Source of the DNA: Longimicrobiales bacterium
GTDB taxonomy: Bacteria; Gemmatimonadota; Gemmatimonadetes; Longimicrobiales; Gaopeijiaceae
Length of the DNA stretch: 64,000 bases
Direction of reading: 5' to 3'
NCBI GenBank assembly: GCA_965198065.1
Contig: CBDAON010000004.1
Location: 224,001 to 288,000 of the forward strand
Part shown: positions 7,747 through 22,022 of the stretch, piece after piece
How positions within the stretch are numbered: position 1 is the stretch's first letter
Layout: every line of letters starts with the position of its first letter
The notes under the pieces: model-generated
Databases searched by the model: none
What the model saw: only the letters and a program-made list of their open reading frames with translations
What the model was told of the DNA's origin: nothing
Program-made: the position numbers and the translations under genes

Positions 7747-10092
7747 TTGCTGCGCACTTCCGGCCTTACAGCGGCCCTCGGCATCATGGTGCTCGTGATT
7801 CAGTTTCCGACACGGCTCATCGCCCAGGACCCGCAAAGCCGCGCCGACCAGGACCAACAGGACACGACTCCGGCCGCCCCGTCAACGCCAGAACCACTGG
7901 TGCCGGCGGCCGACCGAAGCGGCTCACCACTCCCGTCCCTGCTGGCCCATCGCATGGATGGGGGCACCGAGATCACCCTGGACGGGAGAGTCGAGGAGGA
8001 CGCCTGGCAGGGCGCGATACCCATCACGGACTTCACGCAGCAGGAGCCCGTGGAAGGGGCAGGCCCCAGTCAACCCACGGAGATTCGGGTCGTCTACGAC
8101 GAGGACAACCTCTACATCGGGGCGGTCATTTACGACGATCCGGAAGGGATCCTCGCCTATCAGCGTCAGAGGGACGCGGGGCTCGGGACGGATGACCGGT
8201 TCATGTGGATCCTGGACACGTTCCATGACGGGCGGACGGGCTACTTCTTCGAGATCAACGCCGCGGGCCTCATGGGAGACGGCATCCTCGGCGGAGGCGG
8301 GGGTCTGAACAAGTCGTGGGACGGGATCTGGGAAGCGCGGACGGCCCGTCGCCCGGACGGATGGTCGGCCGAGATCCAGATCCCCTTCCGCACTCTCAAT
8401 TTCGATCCTGCCCAGGATACGTGGGGCATCAACTTCCAGCGGACGATCCGACGACGGCAGGAGGAGATTCTCTGGAGGGGCTGGCTCCGGAACCAGGGGC
8501 TGTTCAGCCCCGTGTACGCCGGAGACCTGACCGGCTTGGAGGGACTCTCCCAGGGCGTGGGGTTGGAGGCCGTACCCTCCACCATCGTGAGCTGGAAGAG
8601 GACTCCGGACGACGAGGATCCTTCGACCTTCCCCCGGGACCTCAGCCTCGATATCAACTACAGCATCACGTCGAGCCTCCGGGCTTCGCTCTCGGTAAAC
8701 ACGGACTTCGCCGAGGTGGAAGCGGACCAGCGCCAGGTCAATCTCACCCGATTTCCTCTGTTCTTCCCCGAGCGGAGGGACTTCTTCCTGGAGGGATCGG
8801 GAGTCTTCTCCTTCGCGCCGAGGAGCGGCCCCGATCCATTCTTCTCTCGGCGGATCGGGCTCAGGAACCGCCAGGAGGTGCCCATCGACTTCGGAGCCCG
8901 CATGACCGGCCAGGCGGGCATCTACGAGCTGGGCTTCTATCAGATCCGTACCGGACGGGCCACCCCGGATCCGGCGGAGGAGGGAGGGTCGCCAGTGCGA
9001 GGTCCCGTCGAGGACTTTACCGTGGCCCGTGTGAAGCGCCGGATCCTCGAGCAGTCCAGCATCGGAGCCGTTTACACGCGGCGAGCCACCGGGAAGGACG
9101 AGGAAGGATTCGCTCCACCGGACCGCCACACGGTCGGCGTGGACCTGGAGCTCGCTACACGGAGCTTCCTCGGGCAAAACAACGCCGAGATGGAGGCGTT
9201 CCTCCTGTGGAACTCGGACCCCGAGCGGGGCACGGACCGCTCCTTCAACGACCTTTCCGCCCGGGGTTTCCGGCTGAACTTCCCGAACGATATCTGGTCC
9301 GGCCATCTCTCGTACCGGGAATTCGGCGACCACTACAATCCAGAGGTGGGATTCGTGACCCGCAACGACTTCCGCCGGGTCGAGCCCAACATTGGATGGT
9401 CACCGCGACCGGAGAGCGTCCCCTGGCTACGGCGGCTCAACTTCGAGGTCCAGTTCCGCTACCTGACGGAGCTGGGCACGGAGATTCTGGAGGAGCGAGA
9501 GTGGTCGCTCGGGGTCCTGGGGCTGGATTTCGAGAGCGGCGACAACGTGAATATCGGCGTTACCAACACGTACGAATACCTGGACCGACCCTTCGAGATC
9601 TCGGATGGAATCGACATCGGCGCGGGCGGCTATTCCACGTGGAATTACGGAATCCAGGCAGGCACGACGGGAAGGCGGACGGTTTCCGTCCGCGGCTCCC
9701 TCGACCTCGGGGACTTCTGGAACGGTGAGCGGACACGGGTCCAGGGGCGCGTCACGGTGCGGCCCGGGCCCGGCGTCAGCCTGTCTACGGACGTCGAGCA
9801 CAATGACGTGACGCTCCCTCAGGGAAGTTTCGAGGCGAGCGTTTACGGTGTGGACGCCGAGTGGACCCCCTCGCCCTGGGTCAGCGCCATCGGTGAGCTG
9901 CAGTACGACGACCAGAGCAAGATCGTTGGTCTCTACTCCCGACTCCGATGGATCGTAAGTCCCGGAAACGAGGTGTTCCTCGTGTATACACACAACTGGG
10001 AGAATTACGGGACCGGGCTCCTGGAGGGACGGGATCTCGCGACCCGCTCCCAAGGCGCATCCCTCAAGGCGAACTATACGTATCGCTTCTGA
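7747..10092 (+). CDS. Secreted/outer-membrane CBM9-like plus DUF5916-type protein
   Basis: Signal peptide; LDG.VEEDAW, WDGIWEART, WSAEIQIPFRTLNF, NTDFAEVEAD...NLTRFPLFFPERRDFFLEG; ends in YTYRF. Confidence 0.8.
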   Translation: MLRTSGLTAALGIMVLVIQFPTRLIAQDPQSRADQDQQDTTPAAPSTPEPLVPAADRSGSPLPSLLAHRMDGGTEITLDGRVEEDAWQGAIPITDFTQQEPVEGAGPSQPTEIRVVYDEDNLYIGAVIYDDPEGILAYQRQRDAGLGTDDRFMWILDTFHDGRTGYFFEINAAGLMGDGILGGGGGLNKSWDGIWEARTARRPDGWSAEIQIPFRTLNFDPAQDTWGINFQRTIRRRQEEILWRGWLRNQGLFSPVYAGDLTGLEGLSQGVGLEAVPSTIVSWKRTPDDEDPSTFPRDLSLDINYSITSSLRASLSVNTDFAEVEADQRQVNLTRFPLFFPERRDFFLEGSGVFSFAPRSGPDPFFSRRIGLRNRQEVPIDFGARMTGQAGIYELGFYQIRTGRATPDPAEEGGSPVRGPVEDFTVARVKRRILEQSSIGAVYTRRATGKDEEGFAPPDRHTVGVDLELATRSFLGQNNAEMEAFLLWNSDPERGTDRSFNDLSARGFRLNFPNDIWSGHLSYREFGDHYNPEVGFVTRNDFRRVEPNIGWSPRPESVPWLRRLNFEVQFRYLTELGTEILEEREWSLGVLGLDFESGDNVNIGVTNTYEYLDRPFEISDGIDIGAGGYSTWNYGIQAGTTGRRTVSVRGSLDLGDFWNGERTRVQGRVTVRPGPGVSLSTDVEHNDVTLPQGSFEASVYGVDAEWTPSPWVSAIGELQYDDQSKIVGLYSRLRWIVSPGNEVFLVYTHNWENYGTGLLEGRDLATRSQGASLKANYTYRF

Positions 10093-10274
10093 ACTGCCGG
10101 GGGTGCGTCAAGCATACTACTGCCCTTGTCGGTATTCGCTGACGATTGATGCCCTTACCGCCTTCTCGGGTGAGTCCACCGGGCCGAAAATCGCACTTCC
10201 AAGATTGACCTCTCGGTGGGCTGTCGCTAGTCTCACTCCAGGTGCTTTGAGCCAGCGGGGCCAAGCGTACGGCT

Positions 10275-10419
10275 TTGTACAACAACAACTTAGTGGATTC
10301 TAGGCATCCGGCCGGATGCTGGGTAGGGCACTCCTAGGGCACAATCTTTTGACTACTGTATCCGCCCCCGAATCGAGGGGCGTCCGCGCCGAAAAACGCT
10401 AGGTCGCTGGATGGACACC
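10275..10419. repeat. ~145-bp direct repeat, copy 2
   Basis: Near-identical to 7388-7534 with a few substitutions and indels. Confidence 0.92.
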
Positions 10420-10468
10420 GCGCTAAGGGAATCTCTGGAGAGGTAAAGCGCGTCGATGACCGCTTGAG

Positions 10469-10885
10469 TCACCGTACGAAATCAGGCGACCCGACGCTCA
10501 CCCTGAAGTCTACCCCGCGCGTTAGCGTGTTCACCATGATGCAGCCGTTCTCCGCGATTCTCACGAGGCGCTCAAAGAGGTCGCTGTCGGCGCAGTCGCC
10601 GGTTACCTCCAGGGAGACGGAAGTGAATCGTGAGGGGCTATCGGCGAGAGTTCCCGTCACGAGGGTCTCTACGTCCGAAACGTCGGCCTCGCGCGCCCTG
10701 ATCGCTGCGAGCATGGTGCTCATGAAGCAACCTGCGACCGCTGCCAAGAAATACTCGCCGCCCATGGGACCTTCGTCGGCGCCGCCTTTGGCCTCGGGCC
10801 GGTCGACGAGCACTTTGTGCTCTCGAATGGTCGCCTCGCTCGTCGACGGGCCAACCTGACGGACTCGGACCTTCATCTCTGCCAC
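10469..10885 (-). CDS. OsmC/Ohr-family protein
   Basis: VDRPEAKGGADEGPMGGEYFLAAVAGC...GCIMVNTL two-cysteine pattern. Confidence 0.85.
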   Translation of the reverse strand: MAEMKVRVRQVGPSTSEATIREHKVLVDRPEAKGGADEGPMGGEYFLAAVAGCFMSTMLAAIRAREADVSDVETLVTGTLADSPSRFTSVSLEVTGDCADSDLFERLVRIAENGCIMVNTLTRGVDFRVSVGSPDFVR

Positions 10886-10988
10886 GGTCCGCTCATTCTC
10901 CGGGCGGCATCAAATCGAGTCGCAACGCGCTCCAGCCGCACGTCCGCTCCCGCCTGACGGAGCCGCTCGGCCATCCAGGTCGTGGAGC

Positions 10989-11052
10989 GCGTCCGCGGCG
11001 GAAAACGCTAGGTGGCCGGATGGACACCTCACCACGTAACCCCCGCCTCTTC
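10989..11052. repeat. Partial third copy of the repeat's right part, including the TPR gene 3' end
   Basis: GCGTCCGCGGCGGAAAACGCTAGGTGGCCGGATGGACACCTCACCACGTAA matches 7495-7545. Confidence 0.8.
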
Positions 11053-14000
11053 GAGTAACGCCTGGTATCTGGGGTCGTCGCGGAGGAGGTCCGGATGGTT
11101 CGAGCGTGCGTCGGCAACGGCCGCGCGTCCGTATAATCCCGCTCGAACGATCTCTTCGAACAGCGCGAGGGCGCGCTCAGATTGCCCGGTCTCAGTGGAC
11201 ATCCAAAACGAACCCCCGGAGACCGTTGGCGGCTGACCAGTTTGGTGGTAGCGTATCGCCGCTTCATACGCGTCTCTCCCGGCTTGAACGTCAACATTGG
11301 CGATTTCCAGATACCTACCAAATGCTTCCAGCCCCTCCTCGTATTCGCCGACCTCCAACAGCGCCTTAGATAGCTCAAACCAGCCATTTTGCCACTCTGG
11401 GGCCAAGGCTATGGTTTCGTAGTGTTGTTCGATCGCCTCGTCAATACGCCCAGCTACCGACAAGGCCCAACCCAGAACCATAGAATGCGCCTGGGAGACC
11501 GGATCGAGTTCAAAAGCCCGCTCTGCATGAATTACTGCCTCGATCGCGCTTCCAGTGCTGTAAGAGTGACCAGCGTACCATTGGTGCGCTTGGGCATATC
11601 CTGGGTTCAGATCGATCGCCAACTCGAACTCCTGTTCAGCTCTTTCCCATTCGCCAAGGTTCTGCAACCCGTAGGCCAGAGAAGCGCGAGCCATGCCGAG
11701 GGAGGGGTCCAGTTCCACGGCTCTGCGGGCTGCGATGAGTCCCTGGTCAACATTCGGCCGCTCATCTTGGCGGGTATCGGTCAAATCGTATAAGCTCACC
11801 AAGAAATAGGGGTCCGCGAGCCCGGAGTACGCTTCTGCGTACTCCGAATCCAGCTCTATCGCAAGCTCGAACTCGGTGATCGCATCGCGAAGTCTCTGCA
11901 CGGTGCGTTGGCTAAAGAAAAACCGGAGTGAGTCCCATCTTTAGTTGAAATTGAAGCGGCCTCCAACCTCAGGTAACGTGGGTGTGCGACCACACCACGG
12001 GATCACAAGAGAGGAAGGAGGGCCACCGATGGGAAGGATGCCAAGGCTCGTCGAGCGGGGGCAAGAAGGACCGGCGGCTCGGGGAACCGAGGGAGGTGAG
12101 TTGGGAGGAGATCGAGGCGCTGGAGCTGGACCCTCGGGTGGAGCTGATCCGGCAGCTGATTCCGCTGGGACTGGCGGAGGTGGGCCGGATGCTCGAGGAG
12201 GAAGTGGAGCAACTGGCGGGGCAACGTCACGCCAGGAAGACCGAGGACGATCGACATTGCCGGCATGGGCATAACCCAGGGTCGGTGCGGTTGGGCGGCC
12301 AGCGGCATCCGGTGCGAGTACCGCGGGTGCGAGGCCCGGCCGGAGAGTCGAGGCTGGCGGCGTATGAGCAGCTGCATGGCTCGCCCGGCGAGATGGACGA
12401 GGGGCTGTTTCGGAAGGTGCTGCTCGGGATCTCGTGCCGGGACTACGAGGCAGCGGTCGAGGCGGTGCCTGGAGCCATCGGGCTGTCGAAGTCGACGGTC
12501 TCGCGGGAGTTCAAGAAGGCCACGGCCGCGAAGCTGAAGGAGTTTCAGGAGCGGGACCTCTCGGGTTACGACGTGGGGTGGCACTCGTCCTGGACGGCAA
12601 GAGCTTTGCCGAGGACGAGATGGTCGTCGCGCTCGGGGTGACGACCAAGGGGGACAAGGTCTTCCTCGGGTTCGTCCAGACCGACACGGAGAACGCCGTG
12701 GTGATCCGATCCTTCCTTCGGAGTCTGAAGGACCGAGGTCTCGACCTGTCGGCCGGAGCGCTCGTGGTGATCGATGGAGCCCGCGGTCTCCGGAGCGGCG
12801 TCCTGGCGGTCTTCAAGGGACAGGTGCTCATCCAGCGGTGCCAGTGGCACAAGCGGAAGAACGTGATCTCGTATCTGCCGAGAGCGGAGCAGAAGGGCTG
12901 GCGCCAGCGTCTGCAGCGCGCCTACCAGCGGCCCACGTACGAAGAGGCCGTCAAGGACCTCAAGGCCCTGCGCCAGGAGCTCGCGGGGGTGAACCAGTCC
13001 GCGGCGGCCAGTCTCGATGAGGGGTTCGAGGAGACCCTCACCCTCCACCGGTTGGGAGTCTTCCCCCTGGTCGGCCAGTCGCTCAAGACCACCAACGTGC
13101 TCGAGTCCGTGAACGCCCTGGCCGAGCAGAGGTGCGGACGCGTGGACCACTGGAAGAACTCGAGCCAGAAGCACCGATGGCTCGCGACCACGCTCCTGGA
13201 GATCTAGTCACGGCTCCGGAGGTTGCTCGGGTACCGACACCTCCCGCTCCTCAGGGCCGCGATCCAGAAGGACCTCGGGATCACCCTTCCCGAGAGCCGT
13301 TCACATGCTGTCGCCTGAGACGGAGGCCGCTCCAGTTTCAACTAACTTTGGGATTGACTCAAAAAACGGCCTCGCTGATACGCCTGGAACGCCTCAGGAA
13401 CGGTGGTCCCCTGTGCCACGAGCGGCGTCTCTGCCCCTCCGGCCAGCGCGACCTGAAGTTCGTCCGTAACTGCGCGGGCTAATGCGTCCTGAATCGCGAA
13501 GATGTTCGAAGCTGGGCCGTCGATTGCCTCCGACCACAGAACAGCCCCAGTTGCAGCCTCTACAAGCCGAGGCCGGACACGAACCGTCTCACCCACCTGC
13601 TGAAGGTCGCATTCCAGCACTGTCGCAACATCCAACGTCTCCGCGATTTCCTCGATGTCGGCGTTCAACTCAAGCGCGATGACTGAGGTAATGCCAATGA
13701 CCTTGAGGCCGGGCAGCTGCGTCAGGCCACCAATGATCCCTTCGGCGAAACCTTGAGTGAGAGGGGTCTGATCTCCTGGCGCGCTCGCATCGGTGCATGG
13801 CATCACCGCGACCGACGGCTCAATGGACGCGGGAGCCTCAGCGGTCGTGGATCCCGTTCCATCGCCGAACATGACCCAGCCCACCCCTACGCCGATCAAC
13901 ACGAAGAAAGCCCCGACTCCCCCCAGGGTGGCTTTCTTCCACGTAAAGAGACGGGACGGGACCGTGGACTCCACTTGATCCCCCGTTTCCTGTGCCGGGG

Positions 14001-14265
14001 CTGTGCTCTTGGCGCGTTGGGCCTCGTGTCCCGGACCGCCTTCCTGCACGAACGCGGTCGCGAGCACGATCGGGAGCCCAACGATTAGCAGACCCAGCGC
14101 AAGCGTAGGGAACCACTCCGGTAGTGCCGTGGTGTCAGTTAGCTCCCCTGCCACCTGCAGCACGACCCAACTAGCCACAGCATAGATCCCCAGCACCTGC
14201 CAGAGACTACGGCGGTGGATCTCGCCGATGAAACGCTTGAGAGGATTGTCGGAGGGGTCAGCCAT
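11029..14265 (-). pseudogene. Membrane-anchored TolB-N/FlgO-like plus TPR protein, split by IS copy 1
   Basis: N-part 14265-13361 (EIHRRSLWQVLGIY...SVAVMP...AFQAYQRGRF) and C-part 11925-11029 (RFFFSQRTVQRLRDAI...LEEAGVTW) rejoin in frame across the IS. Confidence 0.85.
11926..13360 (+). mobile_element. IS256-family insertion sequence, copy 1 (transposase 12029-13318 interrupted)
   Basis: 39-bp imperfect terminal IRs (32/39); DDE-type segments LVLDG, VVIDG, IQRCQWHK, TTNVLES; 8-bp target duplication AAAAACCG/AAAAAACG. Confidence 0.92.
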
Positions 14266-14321
14266 ACGTCCCGCCGGTTAACGGCCTTTGAGGGCTCTGC
14301 TCAGTCGGGTGGTAGGGTCGG

Positions 14322-15912
14322 TCACTGATCCGGCACCACCTGCCTCAACTCCTCGAAGAAGTTCTGGACCAGGATAAGGCGCTGTGGCTCGGCAGCGCCC
14401 TCCTCGGCGCAACCTCCGAAGGGACGCACCATTAAGAACCGCTCGCCGTCTGAGCTGACATCGTAGAAATAGTTGCTCGGGCCGACCGGGTATCCAATTG
14501 GGATGGTGAACAGCATCTCTGGGGTCCGGGCCTGACCCGATGCAGGATCGAACCGGGCGGACAGCAGCCTACGCTCATCATCCACGAAGAACAACTCGTC
14601 GCCACTCTTCGCCCAAAGCGGCTCGAATCCCCCGTCGGTCGAGACACGCACTCTGGTCGAGTCCACGTTGGGAAACGGACGAATGAACACTTCGTCACGA
14701 CCTGTCTCGTTCGAGCTATACGCGAGCCAGCGACCGTCTGGAGACAGGGCCGGTCCCTGCTCCGCAAACTCGGCTGAGGCGACCAGGGATACTGCGGAGC
14801 TGTCCACCCCGGGACAGAAGCCGAGAATGTCTCGCAGGCCCAGACCCTCCGATGCTGTCGCGGCGCTGCGGAACACCAACCACTCGCCATCAGAACTCCA
14901 CGATCCCTGGGTGACGCCACGTTCGTCATCGAGTATGAGCACCGCGTCTCCAGTCCCGTCCGCACGCCTGGACCAAATGTTCGACGCCGAGAAGTACGTT
15001 ACGCTTTGCCCATCGGGCATCCAGAATGGCCTGACGTCCGGGTCCTCCGAGAAGGTGATTCTCTCTTCCGGGCCATCGGGCAACTGCTTGATACGAACAT
15101 CAATGTTCCCATCGACTATGCTATTGAAGACGATCTTCGTTTCATCCGGGGACAGCCTCCATCCGTAGTTGCCTACTGTAGGGGCAAACGCGTACCCCGG
15201 ATCGACGGGCGTAGCCTGGCCGGAGCGAGTGACCCATACGAACTCGTTCAATGACGCTGAGGCGGACCCTTCCACGTAGAGGAGCGTCCCGTCGGAACCA
15301 AGGACCATGTCTGCCATACCTGAGTTGCCGAGATTTGCCGTTCTAACACCCTCGAGGAGTGGGACTGAGGAGCCCGCAAGCTGCAACGCAGTGATGTCGA
15401 AAGGTTGGGCCAAGACAGCGCCGTCGGCGCGGACGTAGACGATGTGTCCGGTGGGGACGTACCAAGCTCGTGCGACTCCTGAGAAGAGGACTTCTGATGA
15501 TAGATCCTCCAGATCCACGATGTGGAGCTGGTTGGTATCAAGCGTACAGCCCACTCCTGGGCAAGCGACAACAAGTGCCCCTCGTGCGCCTGGGAGACCG
15601 TGAACCCAAGTGATCGACACCTCTTGCTCGCTAGCCCCAAAGACCACGTTGAGCGGCGCTCCTCCGTCTTCTGAGATCCGCGCAATCCGACGGGTGGACA
15701 CACCCTCCCCAGTACCAAACTGCTCATAGAGAATCGTACCGTCGTCGAGCCAAGAGAGACCTACGAGGCCAGCCGTGCTCGGTGCGTCCTCCGCGATCCT
15801 GATGGGAGAGCCCCCAACGAGTGGACGCTTGAAGAGTTCTGTTCCGATCGAATAGGCGATCCAGTCACCGTCGGGCGAGTACACGACGTCCCTGGCCCCC
15901 TCCGTTCCCTGG
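14322..15912 (-). pseudogene. TolB-like PD40 beta-propeller (probable C-terminus of a kinase-propeller protein), 5'-truncated by IS copy 2
   Basis: YSPDGDWIAY, LSPDETKI, WSSDGEWL, LSPDGRWLAYSSNETGRDEVF, LVQNFFEELR; ORF start lies inside the IS. Confidence 0.8.
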
Positions 15913-17346
15913 GAGTCAATCCCAAAGTTAGTTGAAACTGGAGCGGCCTCCGTCTCAGGCGACAGCATGTGAACGGCTCTCGGGAAGGGTGATCCCGAGG
16001 TCCTTCTGGATCGCGGCCCTGAGGAGCGGGAGGTGTCGGTACCCGAGCAACCTCCGGAGCCGTGACTAGATCTCCAGGAGCGTGGTCGCGAGCCATCGGT
16101 GCTTCTGGCTCGAGTTCTTCCAGTGGTCCACGCGTCCGCACCTCTGCTCGGCCAGGGCGTTCACGGACTCGAGCACGTTGGTGGTCTTGAGCGACTGGCC
16201 GACCAGGGGGAAGACTCCCAACCGGTGGAGGGTGAGGGTCTCCTCGAACCCCTCATCGAGACTGGCCGCCGCGGACTGGTTCACCCCCGCGAGCTCCTGG
16301 CGCAGGGCCTTGAGGTCCTTGACGGCCTCTTCGTACGTGGGCCGCTGGTAGGCGCGCTGCAGACGCTGGCGCCAGCCCTTCTGCTCCGCTCTCGGCAGAT
16401 ACGAGATCACGTTCTCCCGCTTGTGCCACTGGCACCGCTGGATGAGCACCTGTCCCTTGAAGACCGCCAGGACGCCGCTCCGGAGACCGCGGGCTCCATC
16501 GATCACCACGAGCGCTCCGGCCGACAGGTCGAGACCTCGGTCCTTCAGACTCCGAAGGAAGGATCGGATCACCACGGCGTTCTCCGTGTCGGTCTGGACG
16601 AACCCGAGGAAGACCTTGTCCCCCTTGGTCGTCACCCCGAGCGCGACGACCATCTCGTCCTCGGCAAAGCTCTTGCCGTCCAGGACGAGTGCCACCCCAC
16701 GTCGTAACCCGAGAGGTCCCGCTCCTGAAACTCCTTCAGCTTCGCGGCCGTGGCCTTCTTGAACTCCCGCGAGACCGTCGACTTCGACAGCCCGATGGCT
16801 CCAGGCACCGCCTCGACCGCTGCCTCGTAGTCCCGGCACGAGATCCCGAGCAGCACCTTCCGAAACAGCCCCTCGTCCATCTCGCCGGGCGAGCCATGCA
16901 GCTGCTCATACGCCGCCAGCCTCGACTCTCCGGCCGGGCCTCGCACCCGCGGTACTCGCACCGGATGCCGCTGGCCGCCCAACCGCACCGACCCTGGGTT
17001 ATGCCCATGCCGGCAATGTCGATCGTCCTCGGTCTTCCTGGCGTGACGTTGCCCCGCCAGTTGCTCCACTTCCTCCTCGAGCATCCGGCCCACCTCCGCC
17101 AGTCCCAGCGGAATCAGCTGCCGGATCAGCTCCACCCGAGGGTCCAGCTCCAGCGCCTCGATCTCCTCCCAACTCACCTCCCTCGGTTCCCCGAGCCGCC
17201 GGTCCTTCTTGCCCCCGCTCGACGAGCCTTGGCATCCTTCCCATCGGTGGCCTCCTTCCTCTCTTGTGATCCCGTGGTGTGGTCGCACACCCACGTTACC
17301 TGAGGTTGGAGGCCGCTTCAATTTCAACTAAAGATGGGACTCACTC
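15913..17346 (-). mobile_element. IS256-family insertion sequence, copy 2
   Basis: Reverse complement of copies 1 and 3 with the same IRs; no target duplication (TTCCCTGG vs TGGTTGGG). Confidence 0.92.
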
Positions 17347-17842
17347 TGGTTGGGGCCTCGTCAAAGCGTTCGCTCCGCCTTTCGGCCTGCCGGTAGTAGT
17401 TCACGAGGTCCCTCCGAAGCTCAACATCTTCGATAAGGGTCAACCGGCCTGAACTGACCAGCTCGTCAAACGTCGCCTACGTGAGAGGCACATTCCGCAT
17501 CAAGGCCGCGAACGCGACCGCATTCAGGACCGCCATCGTATCGATGGACTGTCCTCTAGGAGCGTCGAGAAACGCGAGAACCTTGTGCGCCGCATCCATC
17601 ATCTCGCGACTCTCGGACAGGATCGTTCGGAGGGCCCGCCCGTTCGCTTCAAAGTCCTGAGCTAGGCGCTCGAGATAAAGTGCCTCAAGGCGCTGTTCTT
17701 CATTGCCTTGTCGCCAGCCCTCGGCCCAAAGGGCGGCTGATACGCCGAGCATGATCACCAGCAACTCTCCAGCCAAACGGAGTCCGAGTGAGGCCCACGC
17801 CCTGGTTCGCCCCGGCATGGACTTAGCGCCCCCGTCCGACAT
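17347..17842 (-). pseudogene. Integron cassette 2 gene (N-terminal TM plus coiled coil, DUF6090-like), in-frame TAG and IS-truncated
   Basis: GELLVIMLGVSAALWAEGWRQ..YLERLAQDF; frame continues past TAG 17479-17477 as ATFDELVSSGRLTLIEDVELRRDLVNYY up to the IS end. Confidence 0.65.
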
Positions 17843-17898
17843 GCCTGTCCCCCTTCGCCTCGTTGCTCAGCCTTCGATCCGAACGATCATGAGATGCC

Positions 17899-17960
17899 GT
17901 CTAACGTCTCGCCGCTCAGCTGCCGCGCACAGCGCGGGCAGCTGCAGCGGCTTGTTAGCT
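17899..17960 (-). mobile_element. Integron attC site
   Basis: Minus strand AGCTAAC-AAGCCGCTGCAGCTGCCCGCGCTGTGCGCGGCAGCTGAGCGGCGAGAC-GTTAGAC: R''/R' boxes, long imperfect hairpin with unpaired bases; upstream gene TAA lies in R''. Confidence 0.88.
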
Positions 17961-18296
17961 GTCGTCGCCCCGCGAGTCGTCTAGCGCGACGTCGTATAGC
18001 GGTTGGACGTCCACTCGATCCCCGAGGCACTCGCCCATGACCTCTTTGTGCTCCTCATCGATCGCGTGCGTCGACCGAGCGAATGCCTCTCTCCCGCGGT
18101 CGAAGTCGGCCGCCTCCATCGCGTACACGAGGATGGGCCCGTCGACCGTCTGGAGAACGAACGCTTGCTCGTGGCTAATCGTCTCCTCAACGAACGTTGC
18201 CCGGACTTCGTCGGCCCGCGTCGAAAGTTCAGCTAGCCATGCTCGCAACCGGGCCTCTTTGCTCGGCTTTATTCGTCGCAAACTCACGCGCAGCAT
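17955..18296 (-). CDS. Integron cassette 1 gene, small DUF6176-like protein
   Basis: MLRVSLRRIKPSKEARLRAWLAEL..RADEVRATF..E.AFVL..DGPILVYAMEA..S.HAIDEEHK; RBS-like GGGAGAG upstream. Confidence 0.7.
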   Translation of the reverse strand: MLRVSLRRIKPSKEARLRAWLAELSTRADEVRATFVEETISHEQAFVLQTVDGPILVYAMEAADFDRGREAFARSTHAIDEEHKEVMGECLGDRVDVQPLYDVALDDSRGDDS

Positions 18297-18332
18297 GTGC
18301 TTGCTCTCCCTGTTCCGCGCCAGCTTTCGTAC

Positions 18333-18365
18333 AGCTAACAAGAAATCGACTGAACTGCGTAATAG
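18333..18365 (-). mobile_element. Putative attI site
   Basis: Minus strand CTATTACGCAGTTCAGTCGATTTCTT-GTTAGCT; the GTTAGCT core is exactly complementary to R'' (AGCTAAC) of the attC closing cassette 1; no attC hairpin upstream of it. Confidence 0.65.
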
Positions 18366-18546
18366 GGGCAACGCTGCAGATGCCCGCAACGTTTTGACCG
18401 CGCCGGACGTTGCTTCGCCCGTCGCAACTTCTGGGCCGGCAGGTACTTTCCGCCGGCACGCACGCCGTCGCACGTCCGATTATGCCGTGGGGAGAGGCAG
18501 CCTATCACCGTGTGTTCGCGTCGGGCATGGCCGGTCTTCGTGACGC

Positions 18547-18729
18547 TCAGAGTAGGATTCGGTCCGCGGGGCTGCGGACGGCACTGGGTCCACGGTTCAG
18601 GACGTGCGTATAGATCATGGTGGTGCTCACGTCGCGGTGGCCGAGCAATTCCTGGACGGTGCGAATGTCGTGGCCATCCTCGAGTAGATGGGTCGCGAAG
18701 GAGTGACGGAACGTGTGACAGCTCGCCCG
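18547..18729 (-). pseudogene. intI: Integron integrase C-terminal remnant
   Basis: [56 protein letters not shown]; tyrosine recombinase box II with the IntI-typical tail; N-terminal part absent. Confidence 0.88.
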
Positions 18730-18776
18730 ATGATCTGGGTGCTGGAGTGCTCGACCTACGGGGTGGTCGATTACCC

Positions 18777-19163
18777 TCACGCCATCAACCTGCTGGCGAG
18801 CACGGGCACCCACGCCTTCTTGATCTTGTGGATCACAGCCGAATCGGCCTGGGGTAACGCACCTTCGGTCGCGTCCCATAGCTCGTCGATGAGGTCCTGG
18901 TCGTAGGGCTCTTTGGGTAGCCCGAACTTGGCCGCGATGTCGATGGCTTTGAGTTGGTCTGCTGGCCTGGCTTCCTTCCTGCCGGTCGCGAACTCCTCAA
19001 GATGCGGTAGGCCCTTCTCTAGGATGTCGCGCATCGAGCCGCGGAGTTCGTTCGGGGGACGGCCTGGACGAGCATGGTTGCCGCCCTGTTTCAGCGCCCC
19101 ACCGTGCTTCTGCTTGACGAGCTTGTCCCCGGACTTGCTCCCGGACTTCCCATTGTCTCTCAC
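18777..19163 (-). CDS. Hypothetical protein resembling a phage terminase small subunit
   Basis: Basic N-terminus with [10 protein letters not shown] motif followed by helical segments. Confidence 0.4.
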
Positions 19164-19239
19164 GCTACCGAAGATGCTGCAGCAATCGCTTGTTAGGCCG
19201 CGCGGCGCCCGCTAAGGGTACGGTGTTCTGGGTCACGAC

Positions 19240-19296
19240 GTGCCCTACCTGTGCCCTAGACATGCGGGCACCGCTGGATAGTCGTTGTGCCACAAC
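19240..19296 (+). repeat. att-like module, inverted relative to those at 7388 and 10275
   Basis: GTGCCCTA-N3-GTGCCCTA (19240, 19251) followed by TAGTCGTTGTGCCACAAC; same order as the reverse complement of 7388-7455. Confidence 0.6.
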
Positions 19297-19303
19297 GGTT
19301 ATT

Positions 19304-19337
19304 GCTCATAGAGCGTCTGCTTCCGTAGCAGGTGGCC
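19304..19337 (+). pseudogene. Possible tRNA-Arg(CCG)-like remnant (partial D arm plus anticodon arm)
   Basis: GCTCA-TAGAGC-G-TCTGC-TTCCGTA-GCAGG-TGGCC; no acceptor stem or T arm. Confidence 0.35.
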
Positions 19338-19533
19338 GGTCGCCAGATCCCGCTTCCGGGTCGGTGGCGGTCGGCTCGGGGGCGCCTCTGTGGTAGCACG
19401 GATCAGGTAACGAGGAATCGGGGTGGCACCGGGCCGCGAGTCTTCCCATGTTGCCCCGGCCCGGTCTTGAAGCTGGCGCGTTAGTCTTCGCCCCGTCGCC
19501 GCTACCCACCTGCCCCCGGGCCCGGAGGAAGCA

Positions 19534-19975
19534 ATGGCGCGCCCAAGGCTACTTCGTGTTCCACTTGCCCTCGTGCTCGTCTCCTCGGCTACCGTTGCCT
19601 GCGCCGATGCCGGTACCGGAACCCAGGACGGCAGCATCACCGGGACGTACTCGTTGGTCATGGTCAACGGCTCCCCGCTGCCCGGCGTCGTGTACGAGGA
19701 GCCGGGGTACACAGAGGAGGTACTCGAGGGCTCCCCTCACGTTGCTCTCCGACAACACCTACCTGTCCCGATTCGTGTGGCGAGAGACCGAGGGCGGTGC
19801 TACGAGCACCGAAGAAGAAGTCGATGAGGGGACCTATGTCGTGTCCGGTAGTCAGATCACGTTCATAGACACGGAGGACCCGGACGATCCCATCCAGGGG
19901 GTGATCAGCGGGAACACGATTACGGTGACCTTCGAGGAGGACAGGGACCCGCAGGTCTGGGTCTTCGAGAAGTAG
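19534..19975 (+). CDS. Lipocalin-like lipoprotein with one frameshift (~19735)
   Basis: Lipobox TVAC, ITGTYSLVMVNGSPLP (19534 frame) continuing as LTLLSDNTY...DEGTYVVSGSQITF...VFEK (19448 frame); shift at a C4 run. Confidence 0.65.
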
Positions 19976-20527
19976 GGGCCCGATCTTCACGACTCCCCCT
20001 CGTTCTGGATGGCCCAGCGTTCGACCCGCGGCTCATTCTGAGTCACGGCCACCTCGTGCGCGTTCTCCAGTACGGCTATCGGCGTGGTCATGGGTCTGTA
20101 CTCGCTGGTTTCGGCGGCGCGATTTTTTCGCTTTGCTTGGTGGGGGGGCTCGTACCGTTCGACGCCACCTCCACGGCAGCGGCTTCCACTTCAACAGCAC
20201 ACGCCAACGACGGGTCACACCCACCGCTCTTTTTTTCTTCGTCCTCCCCCCTGGTAAAACCCCTCCCCTCGTGGCTCATTTTGAGTCGTGGACTCATTTT
20301 GGGTCGCGGCTTGTTTTTCGCGGCCAGGATGCGCGAGCGCCGTTCAAACGCCTCCAGTCTCGTGACGGCCCGGTGTAACCAGCGGCCGTCTTGTCCGTCC
20401 TCTTCGGCGATCCTGGCGAGACCAGAGCGGCGGGCTCCCGTAGTTGGACACCGTTTTGTGCCATCGCGGCGTGCGAGCTGTGGTTCGGTTAAGCCAGGTA
20501 CAACTCAAGAGAGGTGAGATACCAACG

Positions 20528-21943
20528 ATGAAGGCAACCGCGATTGATGGACGCGAGATCGAACTTGACCAAGACGCACTCGACGCGTTGAGGCTGCGAC
20601 TCCGGGGGCCGGTGGCATTGCCTGGTGACGGCAGTTACGAGGAATCGCGCACGGTGTGGAACGAAATGATCGGCCGCAGGCCCGCCGTGGTAGTGCGGTG
20701 CCTCGGGGTTGCGGATGTGATCGCATGTGTGCAGTTCACGCGCGAACGGGATCGTTGCTCTGCATCAAGGGCGGAGGCCACAACATCGCAGGCCTAGCCA
20801 CGGCCGATGGTGCGCTGATGTTGGATATGTCGCTCATGCGCAGCGTGTGGGTGGACCCGAAGGGGCGAGTAGCTCATGCCCAGGCGGGCTGTCTGCTCGG
20901 CGACGTAGATCGCGAAACGCAGGTGCACGGACTTGCTGCGGTTCTCGGGTTCGTATCACTCACAGGCATCACAGGCCTCACGATGGGTGGCGGATTCGGC
21001 TACCTGACGAGGCGGTGGGGTTGGACGTCCGATAACGTAGTTGGCATGAACCTGGTGACGGCTGACGCGACGGTGGTGCGTGCGAGCAGTGAAGAGAACG
21101 CCGACCTCTTTTGGGGGCTGCGAGGTGGTGGCGGGAACTTCGGTGTTGTCACCGGCATCGACTACGCGCTTCACTCGGTCGGTCCAGAGGTCGTTGGAGG
21201 CGTGGTAGCCTGGCCCGCAAGTGAGGCTCCCGCCGTTCTGGAGCTTTACCGGACTCTCGCCAAGCAGGCTCCGGCCGAGCTCACCCTCGTCGCTTTGATC
21301 CGACCGGCACCGCCAGCGCCGTGGCTCCCGAAGGAAACTCACGGAAAACCGATCGTGGCTGTGTTGGCCTGCCACAGCGGGAGCATCGCGGACGGAGAGA
21401 ACGCCGTTGCTCCCATTAAGTCGTTCGGCAAACCGATCGGTGATGTGCTGGTCCGCCGGCCATACCTGCAGATGCAGTCGTTGTTAGATGCGACGCAACC
21501 CAAGGGACGGCGCTATTACTGGAAGAGCGAGTACCTTTCGCGCATTGAGCCGGAACTGTGCGGAAAGCTCGCGGAGCATGCTGCGAGAATCCGATCCCCG
21601 CACTCCGCCGTCATTCTGTTTCAGCTCGACGGCGCTCTGAACCAGTTTGGGAGCGATCACTACCCAGTTGGAAACCGGGACGCCCGCTACGTGGCTCAAC
21701 ATCGCAGGGTCGTGGGAGCACGCTGGCGAGGATGAGGCCAACATCCAGTGGGCGCGCGACGCATGGAACGACATGAGAGTGTTCTCCACTGGCGGCACCT
21801 ACATCAACTTCTTGACGGAAGACGAGGGTCCTGAGCGAACCCAGGCCGCGCTCGGCGGGGCAATCCAACGGCTTGCCGAGGTCAAGGCAAAGTGGGATCC
21901 AGAAAACGTGTTTCGCACGAACCGAAACATCAGGCCAGTGTGA
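20528..21943 (+). pseudogene. FAD-binding (BBE-like) oxidoreductase with two frameshifts (~20750, ~21695)
   Basis: YEESRTVWNEMIGRRPA / GGGHNIAG..DLFWGLRGGGGNFGVVT / YINF..RLAEVKAKWDPENVFRTNRNI across three frames. Confidence 0.85.
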
Positions 21944-22022
21944 GGGACTGCAGATCGTGCGACGATCATGAGCTCGCGTACACCGGGAAGAGGTCTAACC
22001 AAGCAAGGCGCACGGAGGTGGT

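Follow-up and report, generated by a model that had tools for sequence, protein, structure and literature searches.

Does a short run of integron parts on the minus strand of this genome represent an integron whose integrase gene points towards its own cassettes, and could such a locus still exchange them? The parts lie in a 64-kb stretch of DNA, C4:224001-288000, hereafter the window, from a 3.05-Mb genome assembled in 4 contigs and 87.6% complete. An earlier note had read them as the C-terminal remnant of an integron integrase about 200 bp before a GTTAGCT, followed by a complete cassette whose start pairs with its own R'' and by a second, broken cassette, with most of intI gone. All of these elements were recovered. 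On the minus strand, the order is half attC, phage-like open reading frame (ORF), intI stub, spacer, attI, cassette 1 with its attC, cassette 2 and IS256; the stub, attI and both cassettes share one strand, with attI lying 3' of intI. The features, in window coordinates, are as follows.

19177..19198, minus: isolated attC left arm (R''-L''), 22 bp, of the family type; 32.4 bits, second in the genome; nhmmer E 0.074
18777..19163, minus: phage-like ORF, 128 aa, now in place of the 5' part of intI
18547..18729, minus: intI 3' remnant, 60 codons plus stop, matching TIGR02249; its junction is also present in independent contigs
18479..18508, minus: candidate Pc promoter, sigma-70-like GTGATA-18-CATAAT; 1 found versus 0.3 +/- 0.5 in shuffles
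18340..18546, minus: intI-attI spacer, 207 bp, between the stub stop and the G of GTTAGCT
18333..18362, minus: attI, with TTACGCAG at 18362-18355, L box GTCGATT at 18350-18344, a 4-nt spacer and core GTTAGCT
18339/18338, minus: attI crossover G|TT, in core GTTAGCT 18339-18333
17905..18338, minus: cassette 1, complete, 434 bp, with a DUF6176 ORF at 18296-17955 (E 4.9e-20)
17899..17960, minus: attC, 62 bp, of a short type unlike the host family's own ~100-bp attC
17347..17904, minus: cassette 2, broken, with an ORF from 17842, an in-frame TAG at 17479-17477, a cut by IS256 at 17347 and no attC
15913..17346, minus: IS256-family element ending the array; its flanks form no target duplication

We conclude that the locus is, with high probability, a decayed chromosomal integron of the co-oriented (inverted or reverse) layout, and likely a frozen one, as its intI has been shortened by about four fifths and a search of the genome yielded no intact integrase. 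The structure is not an assembly artefact, because 1,505-nt Logan contigs from two studies (one of the two runs may be the source sample) repeat it. A single contig in each covers 17318-18822, with 0 and 2 differences, spanning the array, attI, the stub and the stub's 5' junction and carrying the cassette 2 TAG unchanged; on the IS side they reach only 29 nt, short of a bridge. Further Logan contigs join the half attC to the locus.

The region is absent from the only other genome of the genus (1.6 Mb). Look-alikes (Atlas) of one window protein were most commonly from Gemmatimonadota, and the IntIs of order-level relatives were placed among Gemmatimonadota rows in the 75-row tree described below. 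An Rfam scan of 10000-22000 gave no match, and a tRNA search of the 64-kb window found none.

The integrase remnant belongs with IntI

Homology of the stub begins at 18729 (RASCHTFRH...), equivalent to position 262 of the 319-aa Gemmatirosa IntI, and runs to a TGA at 18549-18547. It retains HxxR, H and Y motifs, which we take to be those of a tyrosine recombinase with Y as the catalytic residue, and is without the N-terminal domain and the IntI-specific insertion. The absence of this defining insertion would fit an origin from XerC, XerD or an insertion-less sister recombinase, yet the stub scored 107 bits against TIGR02249 (positions 259-315 of 315) versus 75.8 for XerD and 74.8 for XerC, bearing out the earlier note's choice of IntI over XerC/D. 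Host XerD (C4:192 kb) and XerC (C4:1,086 kb) are intact, separate genes, only 67% and 58% identical to the stub over 43 aa. Identity to the nearest IntIs reached 85-89%, compared with only 54.5% to the insertion-less recombinase of one relative (G010), and the insertion was spanned in 66 of the 68 nearest loci that reach far enough to show it. A Xer or sister origin is thus extremely improbable, and the stub, judged from these C-terminal 60 aa, is best assigned to the IntI family of tyrosine recombinases.

The 80 best loci in GTDB were 75-89% identical over the stub; 54 were full length, 9 in pieces, 10 truncated at the 5' end, and 7 lay at the edge of a contig. The breakpoints of the 10 truncated loci scatter over residues 70-263 (window, 262), and we therefore rejected the idea that intI is cut at a programmed point. 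At one locus (L043, G021:C13:314-2172), two intI genes stand in tandem on the same strand. The locus itself lacks the intact intI of a complete integron and, in line with the loss proposed in the earlier note, we found none elsewhere in the 87.6%-complete genome, nor any TIGR02249 match above the cut-off; given that completeness, an intact copy may be unassembled.

Two cassettes and one full attC

Cassette 1 comprises an ORF and an attC, with a core site matching its own R'': the TAA of the DUF6176 ORF falls inside R'' (17960-17954), whose sequence AGCTAAC is exactly complementary to GTTAGCT. Among 26 metagenome loci with a homologue, 6 have an attC directly next to it. The attC folds at -23.7/-24.0 kcal/mol (z -4.8/-5.0), with none of 200 shuffles as stable. 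We scored it with a covariance model of our own (R1), distinct from that of IntegronFinder and built from 31 attC of other loci with strands chosen by hand. Of the 21 pairs in the R1 structure, which was present in 85.9% of cells, 17 had two-sided changes; both controls fell well short of this. Under R1, the segment that the earlier note had put forward as attC (17899-17960) scored 55.0 bits on the minus strand, compared with 20.4 bits on the plus strand, and showed R''/L''/L'/R' boxes, extrahelical bases and strand asymmetry.

Cassette 2 is 70% identical to residues 29-165 of a 261-aa homologue that itself has a weak DUF6090 match. The in-frame TAG occupies the position of a Ser in the homologue and IS256 cuts at homologue residue 165; the missing rest of the cassette was not found in the genome.

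An attI site downstream of intI

We sought attI in 34 co-oriented loci as the complement of the first attC's R'' downstream of intI and found an exact 7-mer in 22. A matrix trained on the 30 bases preceding each of these 22 cores, all from other loci, placed the window attI first among 15,987 genomic GTT cores, at 15.8 with the runner-up at 11.5; leave-one-out scores of the training sites ran from -9.6 to 18.9. The distance from the stop codon to attI is 210 nt in the window and 64-281 nt in 23 verified co-oriented spacers. The L box of the co-oriented set fits a 4-nt spacer best (mean 5.13/7, versus 3.78/7 at 5 nt), and attI1 and attI2 fit a 5-nt L-R spacer; an L-R spacer of 4-5 bp is given for attI in PMC12614218.

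Since the GTTAGCT region at attI does not fold (z -0.15 and +0.97) and is not a hairpin, we ruled out that the site is a decayed attC. It has a G|TT core beside intI and an inverted L box, as expected of attI. By blastn, the window spacer had no similarity to other spacers. A -10-like motif was present in 1 of 10 family spacers, and the candidate Pc of the window is not conserved.

Separately, an attI-like site (10.1, third in the genome) lies on the minus strand at C4:2554358 (L136:6358), reading TTAGGCGG...GTAGAAT CATA GTTAGAC. Its neighbours are an IS256 copy on one side and an IS3 piece on the other, and a tRNA-Val lies about 1.2 kb away; there is no R1 attC match and no intI piece nearby.

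IntI recombines the folded bottom strand of attC with double-stranded attI at G|TT, and the intact enzyme of this locus would have joined the two in that way. The attI core and the R'' of cassette 1 match exactly, which is the trace of the last insertion. Transcription of the cassettes would probably have started in the spacer or come by read-through from intI.

Decay of the locus

The decay probably took place in separate steps. A deletion or rearrangement may have put phage-derived DNA in place of intI codons 1-261, at a junction that is present in the sequence. Cassette 2 gained its stop codon, and the IS256 copy that cuts it may have removed the rest of the array by an adjacent deletion, a step we infer because the target duplication is missing. 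The genome holds 17 full-length IS256 copies plus fragments, several others of which have a target duplication; no partner copy with a target duplication matching the array side was found in the genome.

A second copy, at 11926-13360, is inverted and near-identical to that at 15913-17346; it splits a TolB/TPR-type gene (14265-13342, 11901-11029) and has a near-perfect 8-bp duplication. All 17 full copies carry the same apparent transposase frameshift (...GTGGGGTGG...), and in the copy at C4:1521822 a second indel gives a 420-codon open frame with an off-frame middle.

Look-alikes (Atlas) of the 128-aa ORF are viral. Two paralogous pieces of it lie elsewhere in the genome, at C4:2442277 and C4:2443434; a search of 40 relatives gave no match. 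Three partial copies of this small phage-like ORF were seen (window 18777-19340; L034:8143-8418; 9432-9836), one beside a partial tRNA-Val. The direct repeat TAGGGCAC at 19238-19259 presumably resembles an integrase arm site. Among neighbouring genes, that for OsmC is duplicated (window 10469-10885 and L034:10386-10802), and a lipocalin-like gene at 19534-19975 is split over two frames relative to a paralogue at C4:1872 kb.

Alternatively, the locus could still serve as a usable dock, its intact attI and spacer being loaded and emptied in trans by an IntI that is unassembled or carried on mobile DNA. The attI score is near the top of the verified sites, cassette 1 keeps an intact ORF and attC, one relative has integrase-less arrays with attI stubs (G117) and, according to PMC9668308, exogenous IntI can capture the cassettes of CALIN elements. 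Against this, the assembly holds no intI, the array has the same layout in both studies, and no joint indicating cassette gain or loss appeared among the matches listed, from contigs that drop rare variants. We therefore regard a working dock as unlikely and continue to favour a frozen integron.

attC scraps elsewhere in the genome

The half attC at 19198-19177, which the earlier note did not mention, lies 470 bp upstream of the stub, so that one full attC and one half site fall within 2 kb of it. At first the window attC appeared to be the only one in the genome: a genome-wide scan with R1, a short model, found no other among the best 150 of 5,045 candidates scored. This was overturned by profiles of the host family's ~100-bp attC (R2 and nhmmer), which revealed further scraps, also beyond the earlier note; the window's full attC is of a different type from these. 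A full family-type attC lies at C4:1213232, with a cut one 625 bp further on and a 130-aa ORF between them. The 3' part of an attC, with a cassette-like ORF after it, was found at each of C4:2552827, 1726594 and 849806; weaker arms lie at C4:2093543, C4:849196, C3:44000, C3:30537, C4:1755192 and C4:1764190. The five strongest matches, at four other loci, had nhmmer E <= 6e-7; in the reversed genome, no match was better than E 2.6.

At the first of these loci (L145, C4:1212544-1213232), a whole membrane-protein cassette of 130 aa stands between two family-type attC, with a GYD-domain gene before it and no intI; the same foreign sequence follows its cut attC and the piece at C3:44000. Right arms at C4:1755155 and C4:1726535 are followed by ORFs that we take to be dodecin-like and DUF5671-like (215 aa), apparently domesticated single cassettes.

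These scraps are likely what is left of the window array or of sister arrays after disruption by the genome's many insertion sequences. Six of the 13 attC sites, which are not independent of one another, lie <1 kb from a repeat, compared with 16% of random positions. The pattern fits a breakup driven by insertion sequences, which has been put forward before as a source of CALIN elements. It does not tie the scraps to the window array, because the search for an IS256 partner carrying the corresponding target duplication found none.

Layout tracks the integrase phylogeny

The earlier note had assigned the locus to a known group of co-oriented integrons, and its neighbours agree: among the 80 nearest loci, scored with R1, 30 are co-oriented, 14 divergent and 3 ambiguous, and 33 had no attC match. 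Within the host family, attC was found in 61 of 120 genomes (R2, 30 candidates scored per genome) and an IntI C terminus in 25 of 120 at E <= 1e-18. The layout was co-oriented in all 13 host-family genomes with intI and attC on one contig among the matches listed (G010, G017, G033, G064, G070, G077, G085, G092, G103, G117, G131, G140 and G144). The order-level relative G055 has the divergent layout. In Gemmatirosa kalamazoonensis, 11 co-oriented attC within 6 kb come after an intact IntI of 319 aa.

We built two trees from rows chosen by likeness to the window stub. In a quick tree of 75 rows, which left out loci under 300 aa, L050 and intI2, a single change (support 98) accounts for the labelled rows, 23 co-oriented and 14 divergent, compared with a mean of 11.5 changes when labels are shuffled. 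The stub, aligned over 55 columns, fell on the co-oriented side within no starred set, nearest by path to L053, L061, L064, L074 and L056. A more careful tree had 44 rows, with L092, L082 and the stub dropped and 7 unlabelled rows given their quick-tree side. Here, 15 of the 16 divergent rows form one starred clade (98/95), with the co-oriented rows and the Xer outgroup outside it. Orientation thus tracks IntI phylogeny, a result that also goes beyond the earlier note. By the AU test, a single co-oriented clade is not rejected (p 0.642), the tree that contains it being favoured by 5.44 log units; either layout may therefore have come first. The divergent locus L101, the one divergent row outside the starred clade, has an IntI among the co-oriented rows of the careful tree, possibly an independent inversion.

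A further signal comes from attI. An attI-like site scoring >= 3 was found downstream of intI in 20 of 43 co-side loci (20 of the 43 being attI training loci, scored leave-one-out) versus 0 of 28 divergent-side loci; the window scores 12.1. A weak C-terminal orientation classifier, correct in 31 of 40 and 21 of 27 cases, gave the window +4.2. These data bear on whether co-orientation is secondary, the insertion sequences having moved the intI fragment of a divergent integron in front of an unrelated array. The region is indeed a mosaic beside IS256 and phage scraps, and some close C-terminal matches (L044 and L047, 87%) belong to the divergent side. However, the window attI carries the pattern of the co-side loci, its distance from the stub is typical with no junction or insertion sequence between them, and the host-family layout is co-oriented. 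Such a rearrangement is therefore very unlikely and already largely refuted.

Relatives carry several arrays per genome, and 10 of the 12 array regions fetched had no recombinase match. In G117, two integrase-less satellite arrays (L216:5827 and L218:9601) open with the same 40-bp attI-like stub, one of them right after an IS end. At two loci of G010 (L212:9141-9965 and L038:10399-10563), an insertion-less tyrosine recombinase and an IS91-like transposase, which we presume to be IS91-type, lie between the attI regions and the arrays; a similar recombinase and IS91-like unit follows intI in G086 (L172). We did not take the G010 recombinase for the enzyme of the array, because the IS91-like transposase follows it and further copies occur elsewhere in that genome.

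Comparison with known integrons

Three integron groups, among them an inverted integron-integrase group, have been described (PMC3575428), the inverted group being paraphyletic (PMC4889954). Reverse integrons have been reported in three taxa, namely the Treponema denticola type, Chlorobium phaeobacteroides and Blastopirellula marina (10.1101/427781), and the reverse orientation in Spirochaetota, with archaeal attI downstream of intI (PMC9668308). For Treponema, both the co-oriented layout and its loss are documented, with a static remnant in T. phagedenis and a GTTAGGT 215 bp after intI in T. brennaborense (PMC3607928). Like these integrons, the window has intI directed towards attI and the cassettes, an attI core about 200 bp after intI, and a standard attC with a core-site match. 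Unlike them, its intI is reduced to 60 codons, it has two cassettes only, and its host is probably a member of the Gemmatimonadota and not of the Spirochaetota.

Decay of this kind has precedents. About one third of intI genes are pseudogenes (PMC2426708), intI pseudogenes lie near 15 of 279 CALIN elements and 38% of CALIN adjoin an insertion sequence (PMC4889954). The origins of CALIN are discussed, and Gemmatimonadota listed among integron hosts, in PMC8618304. The window resembles CALIN and pseudo-integrons in having attC and cassettes without a working integrase beside an insertion sequence; it differs from CALIN in having one full attC, below the usual cluster size, a retained attI and scraps at other loci.

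The closest cultured counterpart is the integron of Gemmatirosa kalamazoonensis KBS708 (NZ_CP007129.1), credited with >10 attC (PMC9024848). It is co-oriented, has the same attI pattern with a 4-nt spacer (GACGCAG-ACCT-GTCTAAT-CCGC-GTT) and encodes an IntI 86% identical to the stub over 56 aa; unlike the window, it has an intact intI (319 aa) and at least 11 attC. Class 1 and class 2 integrons (attI1 and attI2) share with the window the G|TT crossover and inverted L and R boxes, and attI1 and the window attI both have TTACGCAG upstream. They differ in their divergent intI and in a 5-nt L-R spacer, compared with the 4 nt that fits the co-oriented set best; class 1 IntI (IntI1) falls in a separate starred clade from the co-oriented rows, and intI2 was left out. 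The window element is thus an ordinary example of a known co-oriented layout and not a new system, since co-orientation is normal in the host family and intI decay is common.

Implications

A broader reading goes further. The co-oriented layout could be ancestral across phyla, with its own attI grammar (the 4-nt L-R spacer), and the divergent layout of class 1 and Vibrio integrons could derive from one inversion of intI; arrays of the host family would then have spread as integrase-less attI docks, with the window locus and the scraps as an end stage. In its favour, 15 of the 16 divergent rows form one starred clade with the co-oriented rows and Xer outside, and we hold this reading only tentatively, as a doubtful one. 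We found no paper arguing that co-orientation is ancestral, nor any on integron orientation or attI in Gemmatimonadota, in a search of mostly open-access papers; fig. S2 of PMC9668308 and of PMC4889954 may already show the attI pattern or the orientation split.

The locus itself carries little weight, being one more dead integron of a described layout. Of wider use is an attI consensus for co-oriented integrons, which is testable, derives from 22 sites located by the core-site rule and singles out the window site genome-wide. The host family, itself poorly known, commonly carries integrons, and the cultured Gemmatirosa kalamazoonensis, whose co-oriented integron is intact, offers a model for the study of Pc position, regulation and attI use. 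If the orientation split turns out to have its root on the co-oriented side, it would inform ideas about the origin of integrons.
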